Positions 15,100-44,094 of a DNA stretch of 64,000 bases are shown here, one piece after another. The notes under the pieces are model-generated. The model was not told the DNA's origin. It searched no databases and saw nothing but the letters and a program-made list of their open reading frames with translations. The translations under genes were made by a program, and so were the position numbers. The first letter of the stretch is position 1; each line of letters begins with the position of its first letter. Source of the DNA: Kiritimatiellia bacterium (GTDB taxonomy: Bacteria > Verrucomicrobiota > Kiritimatiellia > RFP12 > UBA1067); contig JBMNFY010000017.1 of NCBI GenBank assembly GCA_050949565.1, positions 1,184,001 to 1,248,000 of the forward strand. The letters are read 5' to 3'.

Positions 15100-15105
15100 T
15101 CAGGA

Positions 15106-23584: not shown

Positions 23585-23613
23585 TTGACAATCGGCCCCT
23601 GCCTAAATATATT
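23585..23613 (+). promoter_or_regulatory. Sigma70-type promoter for the defence operon
   Basis: TTGACA-17 bp-TATATT about 95 bp upstream of the xis-like gene. Confidence 0.7.
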
Positions 23614-23923: not shown

Positions 23924-23932
23924 TAACGGGCT

Positions 23933-27471: not shown

Positions 27472-27832
27472 ACAGCCTCCTGAAATAACTGCGAGGGCCT
27501 TTGAATTTGCGGTGCGAATCGTAAAGCTGTGTCAACACCTTGACGAGTCCCCAGGCGTAGCGAGGACCCTTGCCAGGCAGCTTATCCGTTCCGGCACATC
27601 GATTGGCGCGAATCTGGAAGAAGGGAAAGGCGCTCAGTCGGAAGCGGATTATCTGACCAAGTGTTCCATAGCGTGCAAGGAAGCCCGGGAAACCCTGTAT
27701 TGGCTAAGGTTGCTTGCCGCGTCGGAAATCCTGACGACAAATCGTCTTTCGGAAATAACAAAAGAATGCGACGAGCTGGTAGCCATTCTCACCAGCATTA
27801 CCAAACGGCTGAAGGAGAAACAGAATGGCTAA
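27461..27832 (+). CDS. Four helix bundle protein (23S rRNA IVS protein / TIGR02436-like family)
   Basis: RAFEFAVRIV, QLIRSGTSIGANLEEG, IACKEARETLYWLRLL, ECDELVAIL; GGAGAGG RBS. Confidence 0.92.
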   Translation: MTNKQPPEITARAFEFAVRIVKLCQHLDESPGVARTLARQLIRSGTSIGANLEEGKGAQSEADYLTKCSIACKEARETLYWLRLLAASEILTTNRLSEITKECDELVAILTSITKRLKEKQNG

Positions 27833-28862: not shown

Positions 28863-31800
28863 AACCGACCGACACCAGCGAAAAGGGCCTGGAGTCCATC
28901 ATCGTCGCGTCCCTCGTGGAGGAGGCCGGATACGTTCAGGGTGATCCGCAGGACTACGACCGGGAACACGCTGTCGACCTGGCCAAGCTGCTGCAATTCC
29001 TCTCCGCCACCCAGCCCGAGACCTATGAGGCTCTTGGCATCGGCGAGGAAGACGGCTCTTCCAATCCTCGGCGCACCCAGTTTCTGCAGCGCCTGCAGGG
29101 CGAGATCGCCAAGCGCGGCGTGGTAGACGTGCTGCGCGGCGGCATCAAGCACGGCCCGGCCCATGTGGACCTTTTCTACGGCACGCCGACGCCGGGCAAC
29201 GTGAAGGCGGCCGAACGGTTCGCGGCCAACATCTTCAGCGTCACCCGCCAACTTCGCTACAGCCGCAACGAGACCGCGCTCTCCCTCGACATGGCCGTAT
29301 TCATCAACGGCCTGCCCATCGCCACCTTCGAACTCAAAAATAAGCTCACCAAGCAGACGGTGCTCGATGCCGTGCAGCAGTACCAGCGCGACCGCGACCC
29401 GAAGGAGCTGCTGTTCCAGTTCGGCCGTTGCGTCGTTCATTTTGCCGTGGACGATCACGAGGTGCGTTTTTGCACCCACCTCAAGGGCAAGGGCTCGTGG
29501 TTTCTGCCCTTCAACAAGGGCTACAACGACGGCGCGGGCAATCCGCCCAACCCTGATGGGCTCGCCACCGACTACCTGTGGAAGGAGACCCTCTCCAAAG
29601 AGGGGTTGACCGATATCCTGGAAAACTACGCCCAGGTGGTGGAGGAAAAGGACGAGAAGACCGGCAAAAAGCGATACAAGCAGATCTTCCCCCGTTACCA
29701 CCAGTTGAAGGTGGTGCGCATGCTGCTGGCCAATGCCGCCGAGAGCGGCATCGGCAGGCGCTACCTGATCCAGCACTCGGCGGGCAGCGGCAAAAGTAAC
29801 TCCATCGCCTGGCTGGCGCACCAGCTCGTGGGGCTGGAACACGAGAGCAAGGCGTTGTTCGACTCGGTCATTGTGGTCACCGACCGGCGGGTGCTCGACA
29901 AACAGATCCGCGACACCATCAAGCAGTTCGCCCAGGTTTCCGCCACCGTCGGCCATGCCGAGCATTCCGGCGACCTGCGCCGCTTCCTCAAGGCCGGTAA
30001 GAAAATTATCATCACCACGGTGCAGAAGTTCCCGTTCATCCTCGATGAGATCGGCGACGAACACCGTAAGAGCAAGTTCGCCATCATCATCGACGAGGCC
30101 CATTCCAGCCAGGGCGGCAAGACCACTGCCGCGATGAATCGTGTGCTGGAAGAGACCGCGCCCTACGGCGGCTCTGATGACGAGGGGGAAGAGACGGTCG
30201 AGGACAAGATCAATAAGATCATGGAAGGCCGGAAGATGGTGACCAACGCCAGCTACTTCGCTTTCACCGCGACTCCCAAGAACAAGACCCTGGAGATCTT
30301 CGGCGAGCCGGACCCGCAGCCCGACGGAACCGTGAAGCACCACCCGTTCCACAGCTACACGATGAAACAGGCCATCCAGGAGGGCTTCATCCTCGATGTG
30401 CTGAAGAACTACACCCCGGTGGAGAGCTATTACCGCCTGGCCAAGACCGTGGAGGACGACCCGCTCTTCGACGCCAACAAGGCACAGAAAAAGCTGCGCC
30501 GCTATGTGGAGTCCCATGAGCACGCCATCCGCGAGAAGGCGGAGATCATGGTGGACCACTTCCACGCCCAGGTGATCGGCCACCGCAAGATCGGCGGCCA
30601 TGCCCGGGCCATGGTCATCACCAACGGTATCGAGCGGGCCATTCAGTATTTCCACGCCTTCAAGGACTACCTCAAGGAGCGCAAAAGCCCTTACGAGCCC
30701 ATCGTGGCTTTTTCCGGAGAGCATGAGTACGGCGGCAAAAAGGTCACCGAAGCGACCCTGAACGGCTTCCCCAGCAGTCAGATCCCGGACAAGGTTCAGC
30801 AGGACCCGTACCGCTTCCTGATCGTCGCCGACAAGTTCCAGACCGGCTACGACGAACCGCTGCTGCACACCATGTACGTGGACAAGGCGCTCTCCGGCAT
30901 CAAGGCGGTGCAGACCCTCTCGCGCCTCAATCGCGCCCACCCGCAGAAGCACGACACCTTTGTACTCGATTTCTACAACGACTCGGAGACCATCCAGAAG
31001 TCGTTCGAGCCCTATTACCGGACCACCATCCTCAGTGACGAGACCGACCCCAACAAGCTCCATGATCTGAAGTCGGATCTGGACGGCTACCAGGTCTATT
31101 CGCAGGCGCAAATCGACGATCTGGTGGGGCTTTACCTGAACGGCGCGGACCGCGACAAGCTCGACCCGATCCTGGATGCCTGCGTGGCCACCTACAACGC
31201 CGATCTTGATGAGGACGGCCAGGTGGACTTCAAAGGCAAGGCCAAGGCCTTCGTGCGCACCTACGGCTTTCTGTCCTCGATTCTGGCGTACTCGAGTGCC
31301 GACTGGGAAAAGCTGTCGATCTTCCTGAACTTCCTGATTCCGAAGCTTCCCGCGCCCAAGGAAGAGGACCTGTCCCGGGGCATCCTGGAGGCCATCGACA
31401 TGGACAGCTACCGTGTCGAGGTGAAAACCAGCCTGAAGATCGGCCTTCCAGATCAGGATGCCGAAATCGGACCGGTGCCGACCAGCGGCGGTGGCCGCAA
31501 ACCGGAACCGGAGTTGGACCAACTGAGCAATATCATCAAGGCGTTCAACGACCAGTTCGGCAACATCGATTGGAAGGACGGCGACAAGATCCGCAAGGTC
31601 ATCGCTGAGGAGATCCCGGCCAAGGTCGCGGCGGACGCGGCCTACCAGAACGCCATGAAGAACAACGATAAGAAGACCGCCCGGATCGAACACGACGCCG
31701 CGCTGCAGCGCGTCATGATCGACCTCTTGTCCGACCACACCGAGCTGTTCAAGCAGTTCAGCGACAACCCGTCGTTCAAGAAATGGCTGGGCGACACCAT

Positions 31801-31864
31801 CTTCGGCGTGACTTATCAGCAACAGGCCGAACAATCCGCAACGGGGGCGAGCCATGGACGTTAA
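28859..31864 (+). CDS. hsdR: Type I restriction endonuclease subunit R
   Basis: D..FINGLPIATFELKN nuclease, QHSAGSGKS, IIDEAHSSQ, FTATP, KFQTGYDEP, QTLSRLNR. Confidence 0.96.
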   Translation: MKPTDTSEKGLESIIVASLVEEAGYVQGDPQDYDREHAVDLAKLLQFLSATQPETYEALGIGEEDGSSNPRRTQFLQRLQGEIAKRGVVDVLRGGIKHGPAHVDLFYGTPTPGNVKAAERFAANIFSVTRQLRYSRNETALSLDMAVFINGLPIATFELKNKLTKQTVLDAVQQYQRDRDPKELLFQFGRCVVHFAVDDHEVRFCTHLKGKGSWFLPFNKGYNDGAGNPPNPDGLATDYLWKETLSKEGLTDILENYAQVVEEKDEKTGKKRYKQIFPRYHQLKVVRMLLANAAESGIGRRYLIQHSAGSGKSNSIAWLAHQLVGLEHESKALFDSVIVVTDRRVLDKQIRDTIKQFAQVSATVGHAEHSGDLRRFLKAGKKIIITTVQKFPFILDEIGDEHRKSKFAIIIDEAHSSQGGKTTAAMNRVLEETAPYGGSDDEGEETVEDKINKIMEGRKMVTNASYFAFTATPKNKTLEIFGEPDPQPDGTVKHHPFHSYTMKQAIQEGFILDVLKNYTPVESYYRLAKTVEDDPLFDANKAQKKLRRYVESHEHAIREKAEIMVDHFHAQVIGHRKIGGHARAMVITNGIERAIQYFHAFKDYLKERKSPYEPIVAFSGEHEYGGKKVTEATLNGFPSSQIPDKVQQDPYRFLIVADKFQTGYDEPLLHTMYVDKALSGIKAVQTLSRLNRAHPQKHDTFVLDFYNDSETIQKSFEPYYRTTILSDETDPNKLHDLKSDLDGYQVYSQAQIDDLVGLYLNGADRDKLDPILDACVATYNADLDEDGQVDFKGKAKAFVRTYGFLSSILAYSSADWEKLSIFLNFLIPKLPAPKEEDLSRGILEAIDMDSYRVEVKTSLKIGLPDQDAEIGPVPTSGGGRKPEPELDQLSNIIKAFNDQFGNIDWKDGDKIRKVIAEEIPAKVAADAAYQNAMKNNDKKTARIEHDAALQRVMIDLLSDHTELFKQFSDNPSFKKWLGDTIFGVTYQQQAEQSATGASHGR

Positions 31865-32909
31865 AACGGCCGCAATTCAGGTTTTGCAACAGGCCGGAAC
31901 GGCGCTGCACGCCAAGGATATCGCCGAGCAGATCATGGCTGCCGGTCTCTGGCAGTCCGGAGGTAAGACCCCAGAGGCCACCGTCAGCGCCCGGCTCTAC
32001 TCCGACATCAAGAGCAATGGGGATAAGTCGTGCTTTGTAAAAGTAGGCCCTCAGACCTTCGCACTTCGGGATTCCACAGAAATAGAGGGTGACACGGCGT
32101 CGGTTCTTGCACCTGTCGAAAAGCCCTCAAAACCTCATCCCATCAACGCGGGCTTTTCCTTCATCGATTGTGCTCAGAAGGTGCTTGAGGAGTTCAGCGG
32201 CAAAAATCCGATGCACTACAAGGAAATCACCGAGAAGGCGTTGGAAAAAGGATGGTTGGTGACGAGCGGAAAAACGCCCGAGGCCACCATGTATGCCCAG
32301 GTGATTACCGAGATCAAACGCCAGCAGAAACGCGGTGAGCGGCCCCGCTTCGTTCAGCACGGCCGTGGCTATGTGGGCCTGAGCCAATGGATGGGGCGTG
32401 GACTCGCATTCCAAATCGAGCAGCACAACCACCAGGTCCGCAAGGTCTTGCGCGAGCGCTTGCTGGCCATGAAGCCCGGTGAGTTCGAGGAGCTCATCTC
32501 GCAGTTGCTGGCGGAGATGGGTTTCGAGATGGTCGAGGTAACCAAGCTCAGCGGCGACGGCGGCATCGATGTCCGGGGCACCTTGGTGGTCGGTGACGTG
32601 GTCCGCATCAAGATGGCCGTCCAGGTCAAGAAATGGAAGCTCAAGAATAATATCCAGGCTCCGGTGGTTCAGCAGGTGCGCGGCAGCCTCGGAGCGCACG
32701 AGCAAGGTCTGATCATCACCACCAGCGACTTCAGCCCCGGAGCCGTCAAGGAAGCCGCCCAGGCAGACAAAACCCCCATCGCCCTAATGAACGGGGACCA
32801 GCTTGTGATGCTCCTGATGGAACACGGCATCGGCGTCCATCGCTCGACGCCTGACTTGTTTGAAATTGATGAAGAGTTTGTAACAGGAGGCGAGTCAAAA
32901 AATGAATGA
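31854..32909 (+). CDS. mrr: Mrr-family (type IV) restriction endonuclease with two HARE-HTH domains
   Basis: Two GKTPEAT winged-helix repeats; FEELISQLL..MGF, GDGGIDV, VQVKKW. Confidence 0.88.
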   Translation: MDVKTAAIQVLQQAGTALHAKDIAEQIMAAGLWQSGGKTPEATVSARLYSDIKSNGDKSCFVKVGPQTFALRDSTEIEGDTASVLAPVEKPSKPHPINAGFSFIDCAQKVLEEFSGKNPMHYKEITEKALEKGWLVTSGKTPEATMYAQVITEIKRQQKRGERPRFVQHGRGYVGLSQWMGRGLAFQIEQHNHQVRKVLRERLLAMKPGEFEELISQLLAEMGFEMVEVTKLSGDGGIDVRGTLVVGDVVRIKMAVQVKKWKLKNNIQAPVVQQVRGSLGAHEQGLIITTSDFSPGAVKEAAQADKTPIALMNGDQLVMLLMEHGIGVHRSTPDLFEIDEEFVTGGESKNE

Positions 32910-35900
32910 GAAAGCTTTGGTTCAAGTTCACGGTGCAGTTGCGAAGCATCTTAGCGACGTAGCCGGGCAACTCGCCGTATTTCTAGAAAGAGTTTTACCG
33001 CCGCTGTTTGACGACTGGTGGAACAAAGCGGTCGTAAACACCCTGTCGTTTCAGCAAAAGAGACGGTTGGAGCAACGCAACATCACGTCACTGGGTGGCC
33101 TTGACCTCGCTGGACTTCTTCGGGTGTTGGACCAGAACTGGTATCAGATTTCCAACAGCCTGGACCTGACCTCCGAAGCCCGTCACTTCGTCAAGGAAAT
33201 GCAAACGGTCCGTAATCACTGGGCACACGCGGACACAGAGGGTTTCCCCGTTGACGACATATACCGGGATCTGGACACCCTCCAGCGTTTTGCGGTTGTT
33301 ATCGGCGCGGATGACACGTTGATTCAAGATTTACGGAAAACAAAGGCGGCTCTTCTCGCGTCGGAGACCCAGCCGCAACCTGACCCAGGCGCAGAGACGC
33401 CCTCCGCGCCTCCGGAAAGGAAAAACGATGCGGCCGAATTCGAACCCGGGCAAATCGTCTTCGCCAAATCAAACCCATCAAGCCGTGGCGCTGTGGTTGC
33501 CGTGCTGGCCGGAAAGCCTGAGAACCGATTCAAGGTCTTCATAGACGGGACAACCCAAACGTTTTACGCGTCGCAATTACAAGCCGAAGACCAGCGTGAG
33601 GAAAAGGAAAACATCTTACCCTGCGACCAATTCCATGCCTATCTCACCGCGCTTCAGATAAAGTATCCGGGGCTATCCACCCTCTACTCACTCAACGCCG
33701 CCCGTGTCGACTTCATCCCCTATCAATTCAGACCGGTGTTGCGCTTTATCCGGTCGGATCGTCCGCGCTTGCTCATTGCCGACGGCGTTGGTGTAGGTAA
33801 GACCATTGAAGCTGGCCTCATCCTGCGCGAGCTTCAGGCGCGGCGTGAGGTACGTTCCGTGCTCATTGTCTGCCCGCGCCCGCTGGTTACCGAGAAAAAG
33901 TGGCAGAACGAAATGAAACGCTTCGAGGAGCGCTTTACCCATCTTGATGGCGCTACCTTGCGGTATTGCATTAACGAAATGGATCTGGATGGTGTCTGGC
34001 CGGAGCAACACCAGAAAAGCATCGTCCCGTACTCCCAGTTCGATGAAACACTCCTGTATGGCTCGGCTCCCGAAGGAAAGCGGAAGCGGAAAAAAGGCCT
34101 CCTGGACCTTGATCCGCCACCCCGCTTCGATCTGGTTATTGTCGACGAGGCTCACCACATTCGAAACCAGGACACATTCAGCCACAAGGCCGTGAAGTTT
34201 TTCTGCGATCATGCTGAAGCGGTAGTTTTCTTGACGGCCACCCCGATCCAGCTCGGCAGCAACGACCTCTTTGTTCTTCTGAATACGCTCCGCCCCGATC
34301 TCATCATCGATCAGGAGAGCTTCTCGCACATGGCTGAGCCGAACCCGTTTATCAATCAGGCGGTGTCGGCGATGCGGTCTCAAACGCCGGAATGGCAAAA
34401 CCTGGCGATGGAAGCTCTCGATCAGGCGGCGTCCACGCCCTGGGGCCAGGCCATACTCAGACACAATCCGGATTTTGGTCGGGTCCGCTCTGAACTCTTG
34501 GGAGGCGGGGTTACACACGAGGAACGCATAAGGATGATCTCCGACACGGAGGGGATGCACACCTTCGCCGGTATCATCAACAGAACCCGCCGCCGCGACA
34601 TTGGGAATTTCACGGTCAGGAAGCCCGAGACTGTCGTCGTGCCATTCACTCCGGCTCAGCAGCATTTGCATGACGAACTTTTGAGAATCCAGGCTGAAAT
34701 ATTCAGCCAGATTCACAATGGGGTTAACGTGAAGTTCATGATGACCACCATCAGGCGACAGGCGGCCAGTTGCCTCTTTGGTCTTGCCCCCTTTCTTGAG
34801 GAGATCCTCAATCGCCATCTCGATGAACTGTCCTGGGAAGAAGCGGATGACACCGGCGTCCCCGAGGACGAGGCCATCATTCCCATCCAAAGCCAAATCC
34901 AGAATCTGCTGAAGGCGGCTCGTACCCTTGAGGCAAGCGACCCCAAACTCGAAGCTTTACGCAACATCATCCGCGACAAGCAAAGCCTCCCGAACAACAA
35001 GGTCATGCTGTTCAGTAGCTTCCGGCATACCCTGAGCTACTTATTCGACCATCTGAGCAAGGACGGTTTTCGCGTCGGGTTGATCCATGGGGGGACACCG
35101 GATGAGGATCGCGTGTCCCTTCGAGCCCGTTTTGAGAAGCCGAAGGAGGATGAGGACTGTCTCGACCTGTTGCTGTTTTCCGAAATCGGCTGCGAAGGTC
35201 TCGATTATCAGTTCTGCGACTGCATCGTGAACTACGATCTTCCTTGGAATCCCATGCGGGTAGAACAGCGCATCGGCCGTATCGACAGAAACGGGCAGAA
35301 GAGCGAGAGCGTCGCCATCGTCAACTTGATAACGCCGGGAACCGTGGATGCGGATATCTACGAGCGGTGCCTGGTGCGCATCGGGGTCTTCAATAACGCC
35401 CTCGGAGGGAGCGAGGAAATACTCGGGGAAATCACTCGTGAGATCAAAAACATCGCCGAAAACTACGAGTTGAGTGAGGAGGAGCGCAAGGGGAAGCTCC
35501 AGCAACTATCCGACAACAAAATCCGACTCATCCAGGAGCAGGAAGAGCTGGAGCAGAAGCAGGCGGAGCTGTTTGGCATTCGCCTTCCCCAAGAGCAGAT
35601 GAACCGCGAAATTGCCGACGCGGCGAGTTTCTGGCTATCACCGGCTTCACTCCGCAGGGTGGTGACCCTTTACCTGCAGCGCGTGTGCGGTAAAGACCAG
35701 GAGTTTATTCTTGGCGAAAAGCCGCTCAAGACCCTCCGGCTGGCCCAGGAATCCCGTGGCCACCTTTTAAGGGATTTTCAGCAGCTCCCCAGGCAGAACA
35801 CTTCTGCTTACCGCGAATGGGAAAATTGGCTCAAGGGCGGGAGCCAGCATTTGGCCATCACCTTCGAGTCTGATTGCGCCATGCAGCATCCCGAGGCCGC

Positions 35901-36501
35901 CTTCATCATGCCCCTCCATCCATTGGTCAAACAGGCGGCTCTGTCATTTGATACCAAACAACGAGTCACAACCAACCTGAAGGCAGTATCCAACGAGATC
36001 CCCGCAGGCAGGTACGAATTCGCTATTTACCAATGGCGCTACCACGGCATCAGGGAGGACTTGGTGCTTAAGCCTATCGCCTCGAACGCCACGGTGACTG
36101 AGCATCTTGGTCGCCTTTTGGAGAGTGCGGCGGATTGTCCTGGCGCTATGCCAGACGGCCTTGGCGCTTCAGTTTGGGACGACTTGGACGCCCAGCACTA
36201 CAGCTTGTGGAACGACGCGAGAAGCAGACACCGGCAAAAGACCCAGGAACAGGCTGAATACCGGCGGGAGAGCCTATCCACCAGTCACCGAGCGCGAATC
36301 GCTCTTCTGGAAGAACAGCTTAGCCAAGCGACCAACGAGAAGATACAAAAAATGCGTCAGTCTCAAATTGCCGCCGCAGAGGCGGACTACGCAAGACGAA
36401 TCCAAGAGCTGGACATCGCTTTGGAGAGAGCGGACATCGTCGCCGGTCCTGTTGCGTATGGTGTGATTCATGTTTCCGGGGGAAGCGCCAATGCCGACTG
36501 A
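32902..36501 (+). CDS. SNF2-family helicase/ATPase with N-terminal Swt1-like HEPN domain
   Basis: RNHWAH (Rx4H) at 33211-33228; ADGVGVGKT, DEAHH, LTATP, EGLDYQF, WNPMRVEQRIGRIDR. Confidence 0.88.
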   Translation: MNEKALVQVHGAVAKHLSDVAGQLAVFLERVLPPLFDDWWNKAVVNTLSFQQKRRLEQRNITSLGGLDLAGLLRVLDQNWYQISNSLDLTSEARHFVKEMQTVRNHWAHADTEGFPVDDIYRDLDTLQRFAVVIGADDTLIQDLRKTKAALLASETQPQPDPGAETPSAPPERKNDAAEFEPGQIVFAKSNPSSRGAVVAVLAGKPENRFKVFIDGTTQTFYASQLQAEDQREEKENILPCDQFHAYLTALQIKYPGLSTLYSLNAARVDFIPYQFRPVLRFIRSDRPRLLIADGVGVGKTIEAGLILRELQARREVRSVLIVCPRPLVTEKKWQNEMKRFEERFTHLDGATLRYCINEMDLDGVWPEQHQKSIVPYSQFDETLLYGSAPEGKRKRKKGLLDLDPPPRFDLVIVDEAHHIRNQDTFSHKAVKFFCDHAEAVVFLTATPIQLGSNDLFVLLNTLRPDLIIDQESFSHMAEPNPFINQAVSAMRSQTPEWQNLAMEALDQAASTPWGQAILRHNPDFGRVRSELLGGGVTHEERIRMISDTEGMHTFAGIINRTRRRDIGNFTVRKPETVVVPFTPAQQHLHDELLRIQAEIFSQIHNGVNVKFMMTTIRRQAASCLFGLAPFLEEILNRHLDELSWEEADDTGVPEDEAIIPIQSQIQNLLKAARTLEASDPKLEALRNIIRDKQSLPNNKVMLFSSFRHTLSYLFDHLSKDGFRVGLIHGGTPDEDRVSLRARFEKPKEDEDCLDLLLFSEIGCEGLDYQFCDCIVNYDLPWNPMRVEQRIGRIDRNGQKSESVAIVNLITPGTVDADIYERCLVRIGVFNNALGGSEEILGEITREIKNIAENYELSEEERKGKLQQLSDNKIRLIQEQEELEQKQAELFGIRLPQEQMNREIADAASFWLSPASLRRVVTLYLQRVCGKDQEFILGEKPLKTLRLAQESRGHLLRDFQQLPRQNTSAYREWENWLKGGSQHLAITFESDCAMQHPEAAFIMPLHPLVKQAALSFDTKQRVTTNLKAVSNEIPAGRYEFAIYQWRYHGIREDLVLKPIASNATVTEHLGRLLESAADCPGAMPDGLGASVWDDLDAQHYSLWNDARSRHRQKTQEQAEYRRESLSTSHRARIALLEEQLSQATNEKIQKMRQSQIAAAEADYARRIQELDIALERADIVAGPVAYGVIHVSGGSANAD

Positions 36502-39500
36502 CTACGACAGGATACGAGAGGACAATATCCGTGAGTACGGTCAAGGGACACGCCACCTGTCCTTTCTGGGCCGACTGTACACAGATCGAACCCATTTCGT
36601 TTTCGAGCTTCTTCAGAATGCGGAGGATGCGGGCGCTACCCGAATACTCTTCAGCCTTTTCGACGACAGGCTGGAAGTTACCCATGATGGCCGTCTTTTC
36701 AATGAGCGGGATGTCAGAGGGGTGTGCGGTGTCGGAGAAGGAACCAAAACCGAAGATCTGACGCAAATAGGAAAGTTCGGAATCGGTTTCAAGTCGGTCT
36801 ACGCCTACACGGCTACTCCGGAAGTCCACTCCGGCGGAGAAGGTTTCAGGATAGAGAACTACGTGCGCCCTTACGCGGTGACCTCCAAGCCAGCCGGTAA
36901 CTCCTGGACCACGCTCTTTGTCTTCCCCTTCAATACTGAAGAAATAGCGCCAGAGACCGCATGCAAGGAAATCGGCGATCGCCTCCGCAACCTGAGCGCC
37001 AGAACACTTTTGTTCCTCAGAAGGATCAACGAAATCGAGTACAGGCTGCCAAACTCAACAGGCGGTGTCTACCTGCGAGAAGAGATTGCACGAGGACCCG
37101 CCCGACAAGTCAGCATCATCGGTCAAAACAACGGCAAGGACGAGGAGGAAAACTGGCTCATTTTTGAACGACCGGTACCCGTACCGGGGAATTCGGATAC
37201 TGTGCGTGTTGAAGTCAGCTTCCGGCTGGAGGCAGAAGACAAGGCCGGAAAGAATCCCGAACGTATAGTCAAGGTTAAAGATTCTCCCCTGGTCGTTTAT
37301 TTCCCGACAGAGAAGGCCACAAGGTTCGGATTCCTCATTCAAGGGCCATACAGGACAACACCATCTCGTGACAATATTCCAAAAGACGACGACTGGAATG
37401 AGACGCTGGTAAAAGAAACTGCTGAACTCATCGGAGATATTCTGCCTGAGATAAAGGATCTTGGCCTGCTCTCGGTATCCTTCCTTGAGGCGCTTCCGAT
37501 TAGAACCGAGGATTTTCCAGGCGACAGCATGTTTTATCCCATCGTCGAGTCGGTTCGGAACACGTTGATCAAAGAAGCACTCCTCCCGGCCGATGACGGT
37601 TCGTTCGTGTCCGCCGGGAACGCAAAACTCGCTCGCGGTGCTGACCTCAGAAAACTGCTGGGCCAGGTGCAGCTTGGTCAGTTGTTTCAGTCCCCATCCA
37701 CAATCAAATGGCTTACCGGGGAGATAACCCAGGACCGAACGCCTGACCTCCGTTCCTACTTGATTAGCGAACTTGACGTGGAGGAAGTGACTCCGGACGG
37801 TTTAGCCCGAAGAATCAGCAATGCCTTTCTGTCTATCCAACCAGATGAATGGTTTGTTGATTTTTATGGATATCTATCCGGCCAGGAGGCGCTTTGGAGA
37901 TCCAAAGGTGTTTATGGGTATCCTGCGGAAGGCCCCCTTCGCAGGAAACCGATTATTAGATGTCAGGATGGACAGCAACGCGCTCCTTTCGATGAATCTG
38001 GCAATCCCATCGTCTTTCTCCCTGTCGAGTCAAGGGTTGAGTACCATGTTGTCCGCAAATCTATCTACGAAAACGAGAAGGTAGCGGAGTTTATGCAGCG
38101 GCTTGGTCTAGTCGCTCCTGACATCTGTACGCGTGTGCTCAATGACATCATCCCTCTTTATCAGGACGACTCTGAAATAGAAGATGATGCCCACACCGAC
38201 CATGTCTCGGTCATCGCCTACGCCATGGTATTGGAAGAATCTCCGCATTACAGCAAAATGATATCCGCACTTAAGGATACCACTTGGGCGTTGGCTACTA
38301 ACGCAAAAACAGGTGAGCAATTCTACGACAAGCCAACTCATCTGTTCCTTCAGTCACCGGAGCTGCAAACCTTCTTCGAGGGGAACGTAAATGTTTGGTT
38401 CCTAGCCGAAGAAGTGGAGAACATCGACTGGCAGAAGCTGGGCGTCCGCACTGGCCCGGTCATCAATTGTCGTGGCCTTCATACAAGTCGCAATCACTTT
38501 GTTTCTTTGTGTTCGTTTCACGGATGGCATAAGCGCGGTGTCGACGGTTTTGACCCCGACACGAGTATCGATGAGCTGGAACACGCACTCATGCATATCT
38601 CACTTCCAAAGGCGGCATACATCTGGAACGAGTTGTTGCCGCCTCTAATTAGGTTTCTACACGGCCGCTACCAACGAGCCACCCACCAGAACTACGACAA
38701 TGCCACCACCTACGAAGAAGACTCGAAGTTGTGCCAAATGTTGAAGAGCCATGCTTGGTTACCCGTTGGCGTCGACGAATTCAAGAAGCCTTCTGAATGC
38801 ACAATCGCCGACTTGGTTGGTGAACTAAAGCGTAATGAAGATCTTGCAGAGGTTCTTGGGGTTCAACCCGACCCCGAAAAGCTGGCTCAGGAGGTGCTGA
38901 AGAGCGAGGATGCGCTGAAACGTGAACAAGCCAAAGCACTCGGGGTTGGCCCTGATGTGCTGGACTACATAATAAATAACCCTGAGAAAATTGAGCGTTT
39001 GATGCAGAAAGATATGGCTGCCCGCAAGGACCGCCCAACGTTTCCAACCAGGCCAGTCGCCAATCCGGAACGACGTCAAGAGCGTCTTGGCGAGCAACTA
39101 ACCGACGCGCCCGATAAGGAATACGAGAAACGCGAAAGAAGTGTTCGAACCACCAACGGTGCCATTGACCCGACCACATGGCTCCGGAATCAATATACGA
39201 ACGAAGCCGACCAAATGATCTGCCAGATATGCAAATTTGAGATGCCGTTCCGCAAGCGCGACGGGCAACACTACTTCGAGAAAAAGGAAGTGCTCTCCAG
39301 AGTTTTTCTTCCAAAGGAACATGAAGCCCAATATCTGGCACTTTGCCCTCTCTGCGCCGCTAAATACGATGAATTTGTAAAAACCGACGACGAGGTAATG
39401 GCCGAGCTAAGGGAAGAGATTGTCAGTGCGGAGGATTGTGAGATTCCAATATCACTCGGTGACGAGAAAACCAGCATCCGTTTCGTAGAGACACACCTTC

Positions 39501-39535
39501 ACGATTTGAAGGTCATTATGGATGAGGCGGAATGA
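36491..39535 (+). CDS. Sacsin-like GHKL ATPase with C-terminal Zn-binding HNH-like domain
   Basis: FELLQNAEDA, THDG, IGKFGIGFKSVY, TTPSRD; C-terminal CQIC...LALCPLC. Confidence 0.8.
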   Translation: MPTDYDRIREDNIREYGQGTRHLSFLGRLYTDRTHFVFELLQNAEDAGATRILFSLFDDRLEVTHDGRLFNERDVRGVCGVGEGTKTEDLTQIGKFGIGFKSVYAYTATPEVHSGGEGFRIENYVRPYAVTSKPAGNSWTTLFVFPFNTEEIAPETACKEIGDRLRNLSARTLLFLRRINEIEYRLPNSTGGVYLREEIARGPARQVSIIGQNNGKDEEENWLIFERPVPVPGNSDTVRVEVSFRLEAEDKAGKNPERIVKVKDSPLVVYFPTEKATRFGFLIQGPYRTTPSRDNIPKDDDWNETLVKETAELIGDILPEIKDLGLLSVSFLEALPIRTEDFPGDSMFYPIVESVRNTLIKEALLPADDGSFVSAGNAKLARGADLRKLLGQVQLGQLFQSPSTIKWLTGEITQDRTPDLRSYLISELDVEEVTPDGLARRISNAFLSIQPDEWFVDFYGYLSGQEALWRSKGVYGYPAEGPLRRKPIIRCQDGQQRAPFDESGNPIVFLPVESRVEYHVVRKSIYENEKVAEFMQRLGLVAPDICTRVLNDIIPLYQDDSEIEDDAHTDHVSVIAYAMVLEESPHYSKMISALKDTTWALATNAKTGEQFYDKPTHLFLQSPELQTFFEGNVNVWFLAEEVENIDWQKLGVRTGPVINCRGLHTSRNHFVSLCSFHGWHKRGVDGFDPDTSIDELEHALMHISLPKAAYIWNELLPPLIRFLHGRYQRATHQNYDNATTYEEDSKLCQMLKSHAWLPVGVDEFKKPSECTIADLVGELKRNEDLAEVLGVQPDPEKLAQEVLKSEDALKREQAKALGVGPDVLDYIINNPEKIERLMQKDMAARKDRPTFPTRPVANPERRQERLGEQLTDAPDKEYEKRERSVRTTNGAIDPTTWLRNQYTNEADQMICQICKFEMPFRKRDGQHYFEKKEVLSRVFLPKEHEAQYLALCPLCAAKYDEFVKTDDEVMAELREEIVSAEDCEIPISLGDEKTSIRFVETHLHDLKVIMDEAE

Positions 39536-39548
39536 CTCTGGGGGGATC

Positions 39549-40075
39549 ATGAAGTATCCGAAAAAGCACATATCAATTCGCGTGCCTTGGCACGATTCCG
39601 GATGGGATGGTCGAGTCTGTGCCAATCCACGGCTTAACGGGGCTTGCCTCAAGCTCAAACGGATTGGGCAGGAGAGAAACGATATCGCCGAGGAAGCGGT
39701 CGCCGGTCAATCGCTTGCGGACTTGCCTCAAGAAAAATGGCCTTGTTGCGTGGCTGAGCGGGTCGCGTTCATGTCGCCATTCGAATACACGAGGGTCGCC
39801 AACCACCCATACAAGCACACATCCGAGGGGAGTCACGGACACTTCGCTCCTACCGATTTACGCCATCCCGCCTATTCCGCTCCTGCGGTCCCATTCGCTT
39901 GGATGTTGCGGGAATCGATGGATGAGCTCGGCGAAACATATGGTTTGGATGTGCGGCCGCAGCGGGAGCCGGATTTAGAATTCTCCACACAGTGGATACA
40001 AGCCATAGAGAACCAAAAGGCCCTGTCAGATTGTTTTTGCGACCACATCAAGCCAGAAGAATCACTCTGTTTTTT
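39549..40075 (+). pseudogene. N-terminus of a large RecD-like/AAA helicase, truncated by IS66
   Basis: HISIRVPWHDSGWDGRVC..P..NGAC recalled as the N-terminal motif of such proteins; the ORF stops in the IS66 end GTAAGCG. Confidence 0.65.
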
Positions 40076-40375
40076 GTAAGCGTTCACGGGGGGGGAGGGG
40101 TTCCTGCGACAAGTCGGTACTACCGTGCGCCTCGATTAGAACGGGCGTCTTCCCTAACCTCGATCAAGTGCACCGGTTAAGGGTGGCGGTTAAGAAGGCG
40201 ATGAAGTGTCCGCTTAAGAGTAAGAGCACAGACACTTCGCACCTGCACTTCGTCGCAACACTTCAACCCCACTCTTACTCGGTTACGCTTACTCGATCCC
40301 CGCTTGCTCGATCCCGTCTTGTCGCGCTAACGATGCGATCCGCCCGGCGTCCCTGCGGCGGGGGAGCCGGGCGAA

Positions 40376-41770
40376 TTAGCCCGAGGCGGGTAACAGGGAG
40401 GGTGCGGGTTCGTTATGAAAGTAGGCGCGGACGGCTGTGAGGATAAACTCGAAGGCGAAACGCTCCTGAAGTGAACAGGTGCCGACCACCGTCCATAGCC
40501 GTTCGTTGGTTTTTCGTCCTTTTTCGCTGCGCGTACCCTGTGTGATGAGGCGATCAATCACTATAAAACGAACCGCTTGCTCGGCCAAATTATTGGTGGG
40601 GCCGATGCCGGGTGTGGTGATGAACGCGAAGTAGGCTTTTCCGTTTGTGCGAAAGCGTTTGGCCATATTATACCACTGTCCAAAAGTATTTATACTAAAG
40701 GTTTTGGACGAAGCGTTTGCTTGAAGGTGCATCCATCCGGTACCAACCAGGCTCCTGATCATATCGGGCGCGTGGTACATGTCCCTGAGAACTCGGGCGA
40801 CCGCATCGTCCATCGCGGTGATCGTCCCGTGGACCTTGTTCGCGACCCTGTCGCGGACGATTTCCCAGAGCTTCTCAACCGGATTAAGCTCAGGGCTGTA
40901 CGCGGGCAGGGGGAGCAGTCGCACATTCGCCGGGAGCGTTCCGTCACCGGGCCGCTGGTGAAAGCCGGCGTTGTCCCAGATCACCACGTGATGGGCTTCC
41001 GGGTCGCGCTCGGCGATCTGCCGGAGGAACATCAGCGAGAAGCCGAGGTTCACTGACGGCAGGAGCAGGAACTCGCTCTCGCCGCTGACCACGTCGACCG
41101 CGCCGTACGCATACCCCCATTCGTAATCCATCTGCATGCGCTTGACCGTCCTTTGCCCCCGCAGGCTCCAGCACCTGCGGAGCCTGTCGTGCAACCCGTA
41201 CCGCGCCTCGTCCGCGGCCCAAACGCGGACGCGGGCACCCTGCGGAATGTCCAACGCCGCAAGCTTCTCATACAGGTGCGCTTTGAATTCCTCGGCGAGA
41301 GCCTCGTCCTTCTTTGCGTGGACGGGACGCGGCACCTTGTGCGCCCCTCCGAGTTTTCCCAGCCAGTACCTCACCGTGCTGCCGGATCTTTCGATGCCGT
41401 ACTCGTCTCGCAGCCACTCCCTGACCTGCCCGGAGGTGACCCAGGCCCCGTCCGCCAGCCCCTTCGCCAGCGCCGAGGCGATCTCCTCGCTCTTCATCTC
41501 GCTCGGCCGCCCCGGGCGCGCCCCGTCCCCCAGCAGCCCGTCAAGCCCCCCAGAGAAATAGGCGTTGAACCAGTTGATGACCGTCGCGCGAGACCGCATC
41601 ACGATCTCGCCAAGCCGCTGGTAGCTGTAGATGCCCTCCGTCGCGAGCAGCAGCACCTGGGCCTTCTGCCTGTCCTTTGCGCAAGACGCCTCTTTGTAAA
41701 CGCGCTCGAGTTCCTCGCGCGCGGCCGGATCGAGTACGACTTTCACGCATGGCCGTCCTTTTCGTTTCAT
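40376..41770 (-). CDS. IS630 transposase reading through in frame into the C-terminal part of the IS66 transposase
   Basis: HTH region then ADEARYG / WDNAGFH / PAYSPELNPVE (DDE); junction GQWY-NMAKRFR. Confidence 0.88.
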   Translation of the reverse strand: MKRKGRPCVKVVLDPAAREELERVYKEASCAKDRQKAQVLLLATEGIYSYQRLGEIVMRSRATVINWFNAYFSGGLDGLLGDGARPGRPSEMKSEEIASALAKGLADGAWVTSGQVREWLRDEYGIERSGSTVRYWLGKLGGAHKVPRPVHAKKDEALAEEFKAHLYEKLAALDIPQGARVRVWAADEARYGLHDRLRRCWSLRGQRTVKRMQMDYEWGYAYGAVDVVSGESEFLLLPSVNLGFSLMFLRQIAERDPEAHHVVIWDNAGFHQRPGDGTLPANVRLLPLPAYSPELNPVEKLWEIVRDRVANKVHGTITAMDDAVARVLRDMYHAPDMIRSLVGTGWMHLQANASSKTFSINTFGQWYNMAKRFRTNGKAYFAFITTPGIGPTNNLAEQAVRFIVIDRLITQGTRSEKGRKTNERLWTVVGTCSLQERFAFEFILTAVRAYFHNEPAPSLLPASG

Positions 41771-41838
41771 GAGAAAAGTGTCTCAAAAAACCGTCTGACG
41801 TGCAACTATTATAGTATAATTATTTTTCATCGGAGGTA
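40671..41838 (-). mobile_element. IS630-family insertion sequence, 1168 bp
   Basis: Imperfect 27-bp IRs TACCACTGTCCAAAAGTATTTATACTA / TACCTCCGATGAAAAATAATTATACTA; TTA on both flanks; removal restores the IS66 frame AFNMA. Confidence 0.9.
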
Positions 41839-42444
41839 TTAAAGGCTTCGCGCTTCAGTTCTTTGCCGTTTTTGTCGAGGCGTGAGGGAACATCGTTGAG
41901 TGCGGCTTCTATGATGGTTTCGCGAGCACTTTCCAAGGCACGCGTAAAAGCCTCGGAAGAATAACGCTCACGATTATGGATGACCTTGAACATCTCTTTG
42001 ACGGTGGCAAGGAGCTTTTTCCCGTAGGCTTTCGTCTCGGCGTCATGCAACCCGGTCAGATATTTGATGTCGCGGATCAGGTGGGCGATGCAGAACTGCA
42101 CGGTGATGTTGAAGTCGCTCATGTACTTGTGGTAGGCGGAGAAGTAGTCGCAGCCGAGCACGCCGTCGAATTCCTCGCCGAGCACGTCGAGCAGGACCTT
42201 CGAGCCGCGGGTCTTGTCGATCTTGAAGAGCACGTACAGTTCGGCCCGGAACACCCAGGTCCAGAACTTCCCGCCGTTGTCCTTGTGGCCCGTCTCGTCC
42301 ACGTTGATCGCCTGCTCCAGAGGCAGCCGGCCGAGCAGTTCGGCGTAGGGTGCGTCGAGCGCGGCGGAGGCCTTCGCGACGACCTTGCGCAGGTAGCCGC
42401 GGGAGACGCTTTCACCCAGCACGTCGCGCACGAACTTGCGGATC
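41839..42444 (-). pseudogene. IS66 transposase central fragment
   Basis: IRKFVRDVLG...NVDETGH...WTWVF...CDYFSAY; 5' end missing. Confidence 0.85.
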
Positions 42445-44094
42445 GGACCGGATGTCGCGAAGGAGCTTGGATGGAGCATCGGTAACGGCGGGCCGCTCTG
42501 CATGAAGGGATTCCGCGACCCCTATCCGCTTTCCGGCGACTGCTTTCTTGTGGCACGCGGCTACGACCTGCAGCTTGTGGACCGGCAGGGCACATGCGAG
42601 ACCGTCTGGACCGATAAGGTGATGGTGCACGATCCGCGGCCGCTCAAGCCGCGCCCGCGCGAGCCGGTTCTGGCGAGCAAACTCAACCTCTCAAAGGAAA
42701 CAGGCGTGTTCACACTCGCGGATGTCTACCAGAGCCGCAACATGAAAGGAATCCCGCGTGGAAAGATTAAGAAACTGCTGATCATGGAGGACCTGCCGAA
42801 AAGCGCGAGCCGCCACGGACCGCGCGGCGCACACGGGGGACACATTTCGCTGCACCGCATCATCGGAGAGGTGCCGGTTGAAGCGGACGGCAGCGCCTGC
42901 TTCGAGGCACCCGCGTTGCGTGCGTTGATGTTTGCCGCCCTCGATGAAAAGGGGATCGCCGTCAAACGCATGCAGAACTTCACGCAGGTGATGCCGGGAG
43001 AGGTCCAGGGCTGCGTAGGCTGCCACGAGAAGCGCACCGAAAATTCCAACCACGAGGTGTTGAATCGTCCGGGGACGTTGCTCGCAACCATGCGCGCGCC
43101 ATCCAGACCGCGCAAGCCGGAGGGCGTGCCCGACGTGTTTGTGTACCGCCGCGACATCCAGCCGATCCTCGACCGCCACTGCGCCTCGTGCCACTCTACC
43201 GAAAAAGCGACGGCCCGCGTGATCCTCTCCGCCGACCTCTCTGAATGGCGTTCGCTCAGCTATGACATGCTCTATGCGTTCGACCAAATCAGCCGTGCGA
43301 CAAGTTGGAAAGAAAACGGCAATAACGGCAGCTACGAATTCGGTACGGGGGCCTCGCCGCTCATGAACAAGCTCGATGGCTCGCATCACGGCGTAAAGGT
43401 GACGGTGCAGGAGTGGGACATGATGCGTCTGTGGGTTGAATCGAGCGCGCACTACACAGGCACGTACGCCACGCACAACCACTTCGAGAGCCAGATCGGC
43501 GCGCGGCGGAACAAGCAGCTCATTGAAAACGGAAACGTGGGCGGCGACTGGTGGTTCACCTCCTTCGATAAGCCGCGGCTGGCCGAACCGCTGGAGGAGA
43601 TCGCGAAGCGGAAGTGCTACACCTGCCACGGGAACATGTACAAGCTCGGACGCCTACGCCGCGAACAGCGGGACTGTAACAGGTGGACGAACGGTTGTCC
43701 CCCGGACTGGCTCAACAGCCCGAACTACTCCTACACGCTTTTCAACATGACGCACCCCGAGAAGTCTCCGTTCCTCGCGGCGGCGATGCCGCGCGAGTTG
43801 GGCGGTTACGGGTGGTGTACGAACGCGCTCGGTAAAACCGCGCACGCCTTCACGGGCAAAGACGATCCCGACTATGTGGCCGTACTGAAGTTGATCGCCG
43901 AGGCCGACGCGCGCCAGCGCGAGTTAGGCCGTCTGGAGTATCCCGGCTACCGTCCGAAGCCCTACTACGTGTACTGGATGAAACGCTTCGGCATCTTGCC
44001 GCCCGAGACGGATCTCAACACAGGCCCCATCGACTATTTCAAGGCCGACGAGGAGTATTGGCAGTCGCTCTGGTGGAAACCGGCATCAAACTGA
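42441..44094 (+). pseudogene. HzsA-related multiheme protein (hydrazine synthase alpha middle-domain-like), N-terminally truncated
   Basis: FRDPYPLS, GEVPVEADGSACF, ALDEKG.AV, MPGE..GCVGCHE, DIQPILDRHCASCH, CYTCH; no signal peptide or RBS; abuts the IS66 fragment. Confidence 0.72.

Follow-up and report, generated by a model that had tools for sequence, protein, structure and literature searches.

The sacsin-like ATPase encoded in the window (the whole stretch of 64,000 nucleotides that was analyzed) contains a discrete exchangeable cassette, and this is the new element reported here. The ATPase gene and the adjoining SNF2 helicase gene are the real unit of the locus, a widespread two-gene module for which the restriction–modification (R-M) genes and the Mrr gene are optional neighbors. 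The overall explanation that we favor, with moderate confidence and as a single joint reading, is that four separable defense modules are chained in one operon and that the pair is an anti-phage system, in which the cassette would be the sensor and the HEPN domain the effector.

Operon layout and spread of the pair

Ten plus-strand ORFs at 23708-40079 were identified downstream of one predicted sigma-70-like promoter, TTGACA-17-TATATT (23585..23613, +; 11/12 in the promoter scan), as the original prediction had described. This promoter occurred once in the window, and none of 100 shuffles contained a match. The first gene (23708..23923, +) encodes a 71-aa DNA-binding protein of the excisionase/MerR type (Pfam HTH_17, E 3.2e-16). 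The type I R-M block, which is context outside the pair (23933..31864, +; Pfam, PADLOC, and NCBIfam matches), comprises hsdM (23933-26107), hsdS (26104-27471), a gene for a four-helix-bundle protein (27452-27832), a gene for a YhcG/DUF1016 PD-(D/E)xK protein (27825-28862; PADLOC PDC-S02), and hsdR (28859-31864), all on the plus strand. It is followed by a gene for a restriction endonuclease with two HARE-HTH domains and Mrr_cat (31854..32909, +; Pfam HARE-HTH 1.6e-45, Mrr_cat 4.8e-27; PADLOC mREase_IV and PDC-S02). The two core genes of the pair come next, namely, that of a DrmD-like HEPN-SNF2 helicase of 1199 aa (32902..36501, +) and that of a sacsin/Tiamat-like GHKL ATPase of 1014 aa (36491..39535, +), and a truncated ORF (39549-40079, +) ends the operon. 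The four modules would thus be the type I R-M genes with two embedded accessory genes, the HARE-HTH/Mrr endonuclease, the Swt1-HEPN-SNF2 helicase with the Tiamat-like GHKL ATPase, and a PDC-S68 helicase gene destroyed by IS66. The junctions were as tight as predicted, with overlaps of 11 nt (hsdR/mrr), 8 nt (mrr/SNF2), and 11 nt (SNF2/sacsin-like, counted from the sacsin-like ATG at 36491) and a 13-nt gap before the last gene, whose ATG at 39549 is the start of its PADLOC profile alignment. A tRNA was sought in the window, together with an integrase, as a sign of an island border, and no tRNA was found.

The domain calls of the original prediction, namely, Swt1-HEPN with SNF2, a sacsin-like GHKL protein whose HNH zinc module is degenerate, and an IS-cut RecD-like helicase, were all recovered. 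In the case of the SNF2 protein, Pfam HEPN_Swt1, SNF2-rel_dom, and Helicase_C were matched. The HEPN domain lies at residues 21-135 (32962..33306, +; PF18731 HEPN_Swt1, E 4.1e-20) and has the predicted intact Rx4H motif, RNHWAH, at residues 104-109 (nt 33211-33228). The protein therefore belongs to the Swt1-like HEPN family, which is defined by an Rx4-6H motif in an all-alpha domain. The motif RN[RHK]WAH was present in 45 of the 56 aligned SNF2 proteins, that is, in 45/45 HEPN-bearing orthologues; the other 11 comprised two frameshift-split ORFs, eight proteins without a HEPN domain, and one with a different N-terminus. Walker A GKT, DExH, and motif VI were conserved in all 56 orthologues. The HEPN-SNF2 N-terminus is carried by 737 clusters at 90% identity, and the C-terminal 360 residues gave one weak match, DUF3146 (E 0.064), in Pfam at E<=5.

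The top PADLOC match of the SNF2 protein was DISARM DrmD (PDLC02623, 393 bits, residues 180-1058), and the NCBIfam DISARM_DrmD alignment reached residue 1159. However, its score of 318.2 bits was below the NF038317 equivalog cutoff of 610, the protein carries HEPN as an additional domain at its N-terminus, and its partner is a GHKL ATPase. DISARM membership was rejected, as no DrmA, DrmB (DUF1998), DrmC (PLD), or DISARM methylase was found by Pfam among the ten operon genes and the other 34 window ORFs. The same search rejected BREX and Mza, whose core genes were absent; the predicted lack of a match to the three systems was thus confirmed (no DUF1998, PLD, PglZ, Z1, or AIPR).

The SNF2 gene adjoined the ATPase gene in 81 of the 82 testable loci, defined as those with at least 200 nt upstream of the ATPase gene, and in 57 of 58 lineages. 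In 79 of these loci, it immediately preceded the ATPase gene on the same strand; it was directly downstream in two (L067 and L068) and missing beside the ATPase gene in one (L091). The two matches overlapped or abutted in 62 of the 79. When 400 genomes of the same phylum were sampled without bias, both complete HEPN-SNF2 orthologues (G156 and G320) were immediately followed by the sacsin-like gene. Members of several bacterial phyla and an archaeon carry the pair, and it was also found on plasmids; on one plasmid each of Rhizobium and Methanomethylovorans, an annotated 'helicase-related protein' abuts the ATPase homologue. The SNF2 protein was 78-98% identical to loci in records titled Sedimentisphaerales, Desulfobulbaceae, Desulfofustis, Acidobacteria, and Geopsychrobacteraceae. 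No copy of the pair was detected in six genomes of the same genus (56-89% complete), and phage records yielded one distant, partial match with 27.6% identity. The SNF2 and sacsin-like genes are a near-obligate, translationally coupled, and horizontally spread pair.

The neighbors of the pair included type I and III R-M genes, BREX genes (BrxC and PglZ), PLD-SNF2, NERD helicase, AAA_13/AAA_15 ATPases, and SbcCD-like genes, and the Mrr gene immediately preceded SNF2 in 8 of 40 testable loci (5/29 lineages). The patchy distribution, the defense neighbors, and horizontal transfer suggest that the pair is an anti-phage system. The prediction of a defense candidate without a characterized function was upheld, and no experiment on the HEPN-SNF2/Tiamat-like pair family was found in the searched literature. 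It is highly improbable that the pair is instead a non-autonomous R-M accessory, serving as sensor or backup once the type I enzyme has been blocked. The pair does share its operon and apparent promoter with hsdMSR in the window, the order hsdR-Mrr-pair is identical in L017, and the L004 pair comes after a type III mod/res pair. However, among the 39 loci whose upstream sequence reached at least 6 kb, an hsdR-like match was found in nine and was missing in 30, the R-M type varied among loci, and the upstream neighbors were diverse (HerA-like ATPase, protein kinase, SbcCD-like, ChaN-like, and others). With an hsdR-like match in so few loci, the original suggestion of a backup upon R-M inhibition gained no support.

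The exchangeable cassette of the ATPase

The cassette covers residues ~471-841 of the ATPase (approximately 370 residues; 37903..39014, +). Between genes that were 95-100% identical on both flanks, the cassettes were 20-45% identical, and in blastn against the twin locus L017, the stretch 37903-38892 stayed unaligned. Contigs from RNA libraries left the window sequence exactly at 37902 and rejoined it at 39015 after 1100 letters of different sequence, and two cassette alleles coexisted in one community sample. Among 175 homologues, the allele classes comprised 121, 21, 11, and 4 sequences, in addition to 18 singletons. Within allele classes, the dN/dS of the cassette was 0.11-0.26, and that of the N-terminal region was 0.08-0.19 in nine of the ten pairs with a value and 0.34 in one. 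The cassette is a discrete unit that otherwise near-identical genes exchange, and inside each allele class it evolves under purifying selection. Positive selection was also considered for the cassette and rejected because its dN/dS was about 0.2, with no excess amino-acid change within classes. Accordingly, an arms-race reading would have allele exchange as its single basis.

The cassette had zero Pfam matches at E<=5. Its core was predicted to fold with pLDDT 93.1 and pTM 0.86, and a search with residues 590-800 gave no convincing relative, the best Foldseek E-value being 1.0 and the best VIA hit being SidC (Z 4.1, 64 residues aligned). The helical part (model residues 74-186) showed weak ARM/HEAT-like rows with a VIA Z of about 3.7. 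As modeled, the cassette core appears to be without a solved structural relative among those searched, which does not by itself prove a new fold. As for the RNA libraries, coverage was absent over 38409-38978, and operon sequence in them may be DNA carry-over rather than transcript.

In the anti-phage explanation favored here, the exchangeable cassette would be the surface on which a phage-derived cue is sensed. ATP-driven dimerization of the GHKL head is typical of the superfamily; in the pair, such dimerization would bring two SNF2 partners together on DNA. The paired HEPN domains would then form a composite RNase site and cut RNA, with an abortive or growth-arrest response, and the dead HNH module could be a DNA-binding or partner-docking element. 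A more far-reaching version is offered only tentatively. In it, the cassette would be a plug-in specificity module without a solved fold relative, represented by ancient, recombining, and coexisting allele classes, and ATPase dimerization would activate the SNF2-borne HEPN RNase; the pair would then be a reprogrammable sensor-effector and the two-protein bacterial counterpart of animal sacsin. In the animal protein, three Hsp90-like sacsin repeats are combined with a J domain and, at the C-terminus, a HEPN domain (PMC3710099). A sacsin-type ATPase is coupled with HEPN in both cases, whereas animal sacsin is one polypeptide with another HEPN family and the window encodes two partner proteins; no evidence of a direct descent link between them was found. 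The near-identical genes that differ in one exchangeable central module constitute a natural experiment, and the cassette differences could reveal where in a sacsin-type ATPase recognition takes place.

The HNH-like module and related systems

The sacsin-like ATPase was matched by Pfam SACS (8.6e-19), NCBIfam P_loop_sacsin (90.8 bits; cutoff 50), and PADLOC TmtA (PDLC03972, 231 bits), the last aligning residues 35-776 to profile positions 36-803 of 1302. Its Bergerat-type E39, N43, and D46 and the GxGxG region were invariant in 27 homologues. The C-terminal part, residues ~881-1008 (39131..39514, +), is an McrA-type HNH-like zinc module without the catalytic histidines. The predicted CQIC..CPLC zinc module lacking the usual HNH histidines was located at residues 911-914 and 952-955. 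In the 27 homologues, Cys911, 914, 952, and 955 were invariant, as were E930, E933, E943, and Q947, and H944 was present in at least 90%. The profile of the module matched EcoKMcrA (6ghc_A) with E 7.7e-5, and in this alignment the catalytic HH, N, and H of McrA corresponded to V/K-E, Q, and A. VIA-align placed 86 residues of the module on the HNH domain of McrA (Z 6.2, rmsd 3.0 A) and also matched it to TagI (Z 6.2). The best Foldseek matches were the HNH proteins McrA, TagI, and Cap5, with weak E-values from 0.026, and Pfam at E<=5 gave nothing beyond zinc-ribbon noise. The module is carried by 746 clusters at 50% identity (E<=1e-10). The ATPase is a Tiamat-like protein in which an McrA-type HNH fold without catalytic histidines takes the place of the nuclease. 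The module could still be active despite the lost histidines, as PacI is an HNH enzyme that works without canonical residues (cited in passages of bioRxiv 10.64898/2026.09.30.754977).

The retained fold bears on a second reading, which we regard as rather unlikely. Here, the pair would be primarily DNA-directed and restriction-like, the SNF2 protein translocating along foreign DNA, the HNH-like module or a nearby nuclease such as Mrr nicking or cutting that DNA, and HEPN being a last-resort suicide add-on, a role that has been proposed for HEPN-DUF499 of BREX-related systems. The HNH fold is kept with its invariant Cys4 and acidic and glutamine positions, and the nucleases Mrr, REase-ARP, and Mrr_N-protein recur beside the pair. 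The HEPN domain is missing in 7 of 38 lineages (8/51 loci) in which the pair is nevertheless kept; it therefore cannot be the sole effector. According to the available passages of the same preprint, the B. cereus Tiamat protein cleaves ssDNA and introduces nicks into dsDNA, and the neighbors of Tiamat are mostly helicases (bioRxiv 10.64898/2026.09.30.754977), while an N-terminal HEPN domain on DUF499 ATPases is read as a backup effector in the text seen of PMC12839542. The replaced canonical HNH positions, the HEPN domain with intact Rx4H in 31 of the 38 lineages, and the lack of a consistently linked methyltransferase to mark self DNA count against a DNA-directed pair.

Comparison with Tiamat (TmtA), a single-gene anti-phage system (Millman et al. 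2022 via bioRxiv 10.64898/2026.09.30.754977) whose E44A ATPase mutant loses protection, as the preprint states in citing earlier work, showed both likeness and difference. The window ATPase has the N-terminal Hsp90/GHKL-type ATPase domain of Tiamat in the strict sense, part of the central region also aligns, and both proteins occur in defense islands. In contrast to Tiamat, it has no DUF3883/PD-(D/E)xK nuclease by Pfam and ends in the McrA-type HNH-like fold, its 1014 aa compare with TmtA profiles of 1063-1782 positions, and it is not stand-alone, being SNF2-paired in nearly every testable locus.

The system had been predicted to be unnamed, and this was not sustained. The parts are not unnamed, since PADLOC models matched all three proteins, the SNF2 protein as DrmD-like, the N-terminal two thirds of the ATPase as TmtA, and the last one as PDC-S68. 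A preprint of October 2026 already lists, in its passages on the subject, HNH-type Tiamat-like proteins with a helicase-nuclease neighbor, under the name "Type IV-A/IV-B" (bioRxiv 10.64898/2026.09.30.754977). As these passages define the types, the window ATPase has the Type IV-A features, an McrA-type fold with V/K-E, Q, and A for HH, N, and H, and the abutting HEPN-SNF2 gene provides the adjacent helicase-nuclease fusion of Type IV-B. The Type IV-B neighborhood of the preprint has an adjacent gene for a helicase that bears a nuclease domain, and Swi/Snf is among the listed partner helicases; the IV-B helicase may correspond to the Swt1-HEPN SNF2 protein. The Type IV text seen of the preprint does not identify that helicase as SNF2 with Swt1-HEPN and contains no near-obligate pairing, swappable cassette, facultative HEPN, PDC-S68 linkage, or experiment on the type. 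The helicase-partnered Tiamat-like branch is large.

Hma, a Type-1 DUF499-centered BREX-related system (parts of PMC11232893, PMC12839542, and PMC3710099), shares with the pair an SNF2 helicase, a large sensor ATPase of which one region evolves fast, an N-terminal Swt1-family HEPN domain, and a nuclease, in another arrangement. As described there, Hma has HEPN on the STAND/DUF499 ATPase, the PD-(D/E)xK nuclease on SNF2, and a methyltransferase as a core gene, whereas the window pair has HEPN on SNF2, a GHKL-type ATPase, and no conserved methyltransferase. Membership in Hma was rejected, since no DUF499 or DUF3883 was found in the operon and the HmaA model was a secondary match of 137 bits.

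The PDC-S68 gene and its interruption

The last gene is a 5' fragment of approximately 176 codons (39549..40075, +) of a PDC-S68-type RecD-like SF1 helicase gene, and it matched PADLOC PDLC05065 (222.6 bits) over profile positions 1-174 of 1221. The PADLOC PDC-S68 protein is a RecD-like SF1 helicase of about 1220-1270 aa; the window gene falls short of the full length (~1220 aa with the RecD-like SF1 core). Intact homologues beside the pair scored 1380-1657 bits, and those of L003 and L017 have 1242-1258 aa with AAA_30, AAA_19, and UvrD_C_2. The protein departs from its L017 homologue after ...EESLCF, and a search of the genome did not recover the remainder of the gene. An IS66-family remnant follows directly (40076..42503, -), and an IS630-family element lies within the transposase gene of this remnant. 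The end of the IS66 remnant begins with GTAAGCG at 40076, which we take to be the usual IS66 terminus. The ORF at 40376-41770 (-) matched NCBIfam transpos_IS630 at residues 36-329 and IS66 profile positions 305-384, the ORF at 41820-42503 (-) matched IS66 profile positions 110-288, and a search of the genome for other IS copies reported the self match alone. An IS66 element cuts the PDC-S68 gene after approximately 176 codons, in agreement with the predicted IS disruption.

The N-terminus of PDC-S68 (a 600-residue region; 618 residues queried) matched zero Pfam families at E<=5 and unnamed clusters only in the ESM Atlas, and no mention of PDC-S68 was found in the searched literature. The PADLOC prefix 'PDC-S' presumably denotes a single-gene candidate.

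The original prediction had treated the HEPN-SNF2, sacsin-like, and RecD-like genes as one system; this was not borne out, as the tight pair stands alone across the testable loci and the RecD-like gene accompanies it in 19 of 56 lineages. Thus, in the proposed check on the co-occurrence of the three genes, conserved synteny held for SNF2 and the sacsin-like gene, and the RecD-like gene proved independent. It is accordingly improbable that the three form one obligate three-ATPase system that is IS-inactivated here. In favor of such a system, a PDC-S68-type gene was directly after the pair in 31 of the 73 loci with downstream sequence, and some of these homologues are only 25-39% identical, so that the linkage to the pair is old and recurrent; the 13-nt spacing in the window is tight, and the L017 operon continues through PDC-S68 into two more genes with 4-nt overlaps. 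However, the gene was missing after the pair in 37 of the 56 lineages, and PADLOC presumably treats it as a single-gene candidate. The annotation is therefore corrected to separate modules that often share an operon, and PDC-S68, Mrr, and R-M probably act independently of the pair and are simply co-located with it. Three full-length PDC-S68 homologues in the 400-genome sample all occurred without the pair, one of them between hsdM and hsdS. PDC-S68 had also decayed independently, with the pair intact, at four other loci, being truncated at approximately residue 61 in L018 and L019, internally depleted in L020, and ended at 709 aa in L008.

The helicase-ATPase pair and its neighbours

The Swt1-HEPN/SNF2 helicase gene (32902-36501, + strand) and the sacsin/Tiamat-like GHKL ATPase gene (36491-39535, +) were compared across loci anchored on the ATPase, namely, 9 genome loci and the best 80 of at least 574 confirmed metagenome loci; these 89 loci formed 64 groups at 95% nucleotide identity. 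Of the 82 loci whose upstream sequence extended for 200 nt or more, 79 had the SNF2 gene directly upstream on the same strand, and the two matches overlapped or abutted in 62 of those 79. In two loci (L067 and L068), the SNF2 gene was directly downstream, and the sole testable locus without it (L091) carried a divergent 1099-aa form of the ATPase with a methylase downstream. An even sample of 400 genomes from the phylum of the window contained two complete HEPN-SNF2 orthologues, each with a sacsin-like gene immediately after it, and a third orthologue cut by a contig end. In RefSeq annotation of a Rhizobium plasmid and an archaeal Methanomethylovorans plasmid, a "helicase-related protein" abuts the ATPase homologue. 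This is a large family: the HEPN-bearing N-terminus was common to 737 clusters at 90% identity, with HEPN_Swt1 and SNF2 domains together in all 120 of the matches listed. The C-terminal 171 residues of the ATPase were common to 746 clusters at 50% identity (E <= 1e-10), mostly as the end of proteins of ~1000-1070 aa. The conserved unit is the HEPN-SNF2 and ATPase gene pair, and the module, as judged from sequence, is real and conserved.

Two further observations concern the partners. The sacsin-like proteins of the phylum sample (G156:C7:406136-407476 and G320:C42:18390-19871; 1092-1098 aa) match the window ATPase only over the N-terminal 440-460 residues, so their C-terminal half may be a different one. 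In five loci, SNF2 and ATPase are separated by a conserved gene of 206-219 aa (L046:3902-4552, L051:7309-7947, L055:253-873, L070:6915-7574, and L088:3178-3828); its L046 representative matched no Pfam or PADLOC family.

The original prediction joined a RecD-like gene to the pair as a three-gene system. This was not supported, as a gene of the PDC-S68 type (the PADLOC candidate name for the RecD-like SF1 helicase) followed the pair in only 31 of 73 loci (19 of 56 lineages). Thus, PDC-S68 is enriched beside the pair, yet not bound to it. The pair was whole while PDC-S68 had decayed in L008, L018, L019, and L020, and the three full-length PDC-S68 homologues of the 400-genome sample all occurred without the pair. 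One of these homologues (L097, G332:C125; 48% identical) sits between hsdM-like and hsdS-like genes and so belongs to a type I R-M operon that lacks the pair. Intact relatives are RecD-like SF1 helicases of 1242-1258 aa, whose 600-residue N-terminal region matched no known family, and the literature search found no paper on PDC-S68. Mrr preceded the pair in 8 of 40 loci, and an hsdR-like gene lay inside the locus in 9 of 39. Other neighbours varied, including type I/III R-M, BrxC/PglX/PglZ, PLD-SNF2, a NERD helicase, AAA_13/AAA_15 ATPases, and SbcCD-like genes.

In loci of the L017 type (L017, a metagenome locus, at 14772-16702; likewise L020, L021, and L023-L025), genes for an ADP-ribosylglycohydrolase (324 aa) and an REase-ARP PD-(D/E)xK nuclease (319 aa) come after PDC-S68, overlapping by 4 nt. 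Neither had a PADLOC match; together with PDC-S68, they may make up an additional module. In L083 (9942-10805), an REase-ARP gene lies between ATPase and PDC-S68. A conserved 82-aa ORF without a family match was observed just upstream of SNF2 (L037:4143-4391, L038-L042, and L069); in 6 of these 7 loci, a ResIII/Helicase_C helicase, 619 aa long or in a partial version, precedes it.

Architecture of the ATPase and its central cassette

L017 is the twin of the window, with the order YhcG-hsdR-Mrr-SNF2-ATPase-PDC-S68 and proteins 92-99% identical, the exception being the ATPase at 71%. In 40-residue bins, ATPase identity was 95-100% over residues 1-470, 20-47% over ~480-840, and 87-100% over 840-1014. 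At the DNA level, 28467-37902 aligned at 95.9% and 38893-40081 at 91.9%, with no alignment between. The divergent segment is a central cassette (residues ~471-841; 37903-39014), the feature most worth follow-up. This pattern was not confined to L017. When 175 full-length, non-redundant homologues were compared, their middle regions fell into classes of 121, 21, 11 (that of the window), and 4 members and 18 singletons, and of the 463 pairs whose N-terminal parts were at least 90% identical, 20% were <40% identical in the middle. Within classes, the cassette dN/dS was 0.11-0.26, and this purifying selection argues that the variation reflects functional alleles of old origin being exchanged rather than fast point mutation. 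Public runs gave independent support: in four metatranscriptome libraries, contigs tracked the window to exactly 37902, carried 1100 other letters, and rejoined at 39015. One of these libraries (run X15) contained the window's allele as a 250-nt contig (38179-38428; depth 3) together with contigs of the major allele (depth 7-11); thus, cassette variants coexist in one digester community. Residues 471-1014 gave a predicted fold with a mean pLDDT of 88.7. The cassette core (residues 590-800) folded alone with pLDDT 93.1 and pTM 0.86, and the searches returned no convincing solved relative (best Foldseek E 1.0, best VIA Z 4.1).

The last 130 residues of the ATPase adopt a McrA/TagI-type HNH fold. 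A profile built from 55 homologues found EcoKMcrA by sequence (E 7.7e-5), and VIA-align gave Z 6.2 for both the McrA HNH domain (rmsd 3.0 A, 86 residues) and TagI; the Foldseek top ranks, McrA, TagI, and Cap5, were weak (E 0.026 and worse). The four cysteines of the module are invariant, and the CQIC...CPLC noted earlier was confirmed at residues 911-955. In the sequence alignment, the McrA HH, N, and H positions correspond to V/K-E, Q, and A, so the earlier reading as an HNH module without histidines was right.

Relation to described systems and proposed function

Tiamat (TmtA) has a DUF3883 nuclease, whereas the window ATPase lacks DUF3883 and is matched by the PADLOC Tiamat models only over its first 776 residues. 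The top defence-library match of the SNF2 protein was a DrmD model (393 bits); however, it scored 318 bits against DISARM DrmD, below the NCBI cutoff of 610, and no DISARM core genes accompanied it. Hma, a DUF499 BREX-related system, combines the same parts in another arrangement. The closest description was found in an October 2026 preprint (bioRxiv 10.64898/2026.09.30.754977), whose available text reports Type IV-A Tiamat-like proteins with an HNH-like fold without catalytic residues in place of the nuclease, a Type IV-B neighbourhood in which a helicase is fused to a nuclease, and Swi/Snf among the partner helicases. From this text, we infer that Type IV-B corresponds to the HEPN-SNF2 pair. 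Within the readable text of the literature searched, no description of the HEPN-SNF2 and sacsin-like pair itself was found. The pair fits best as a Tiamat-type variant that has a helicase partner.

The patchy distribution, cross-phylum near-identity, and defence-gene neighbours suggest that the pair is a defence system. It was found in none of six same-genus genomes, which are incomplete. In the preferred model, the cassette would sense a phage cue, and the GHKL heads of the ATPase would dimerise on ATP, ATP-dependent dimerisation being an established property of the GHKL superfamily. The dimerised ATPase would then juxtapose two SNF2-borne HEPN domains, leading to HEPN-mediated RNA cleavage; according to the October 2026 preprint, HEPN domains must dimerise for an active site. 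A Swt1-family HEPN domain lies at the SNF2 protein N-terminus (E 4e-20), with the RNHWAH noted earlier at residues 104-109, and the Rx4H motif is intact in every HEPN-bearing protein (45/45). HEPN was present in 43 of 51 testable loci and 31 of 38 lineages; the lineages of the pair without it favour the main rival, in which the pair would act on DNA in a restriction-like manner and HEPN would serve as a backup, as does the DNase activity reported for Tiamat.

Defence island, IS break and expression

The promoter candidate TTGACA-17-TATATT was present as claimed, at one site in the window (23585-23613; promoter-scan score 11/12) and in none of 100 shuffles. Downstream, ten + strand genes encode, in order, a 71-aa HTH_17 protein, HsdM, HsdS, a four-helix-bundle protein ("23S rRNA intervening sequence"), a YhcG/DUF1016 nuclease (PADLOC PDC-S02), HsdR, a HARE-HTH+Mrr endonuclease, the HEPN-SNF2 protein (1199 aa), the sacsin-like protein (1014 aa), and a fragment of 176 codons. 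The quoted overlaps of 11, 8, and 11 nt from hsdR to the ATPase gene and the 13-nt gap after it were exact. The type I R-M system is complete, with Pfam, PADLOC, and NCBIfam concordant. The four-helix-bundle and YhcG/DUF1016 genes (27452-28862) sit inside it, after hsdS and before hsdR, and the stop and start codons at these junctions overlap. The remaining window held ordinary metabolism and no further defence genes; thus, the island spans ~23.5-40.1 kb, with IS debris at its end. The setting is an ordinary defence island with one neighbour gene killed by an IS.

That neighbour, predicted to be RecD-like and IS-disrupted, proved to be the 5' end of PDC-S68 (39549-40075, +). Its frame tracks the L017 homologue as far as ...EESLCF, after which GTAAGCG is reached at 40076. 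Further on (40376-42503, -), an IS66 transposase gene is represented by its C-terminal part, with an IS630-family element nested inside it. One ORF (40376-41770, -) reads through from the IS630 transposase to the C-terminal portion of the IS66 one, and about 110 profile positions are missing from the start of the IS66 gene. The remainder of PDC-S68 was absent from the whole 4.66-Mb assembly (92% complete), and the ADP-ribosylglycohydrolase and REase-ARP genes of L017-type loci are also missing in the window, which suggests that an IS-mediated deletion removed the downstream genes. Contigs of three of the four RNA libraries extended past 40075 into intact PDC-S68, so the insertion is absent from those relatives.

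Six metatranscriptome runs contained 45-49% of the words sampled from the stretch, and one RNA library gave an 11,967-nt contig across Mrr, SNF2, ATPase, and PDC-S68. Since DNA carry-over into RNA libraries is possible, these contigs only hint at transcription of the operon. Beyond the island, 42436-44094 encodes a multi-haem cytochrome c-like protein of 552 aa whose middle domain is of the hydrazine-synthase-alpha type (PF18582, E 3.5e-21); its gene starts inside the IS66 remnant, and thus its 5' end may be affected.
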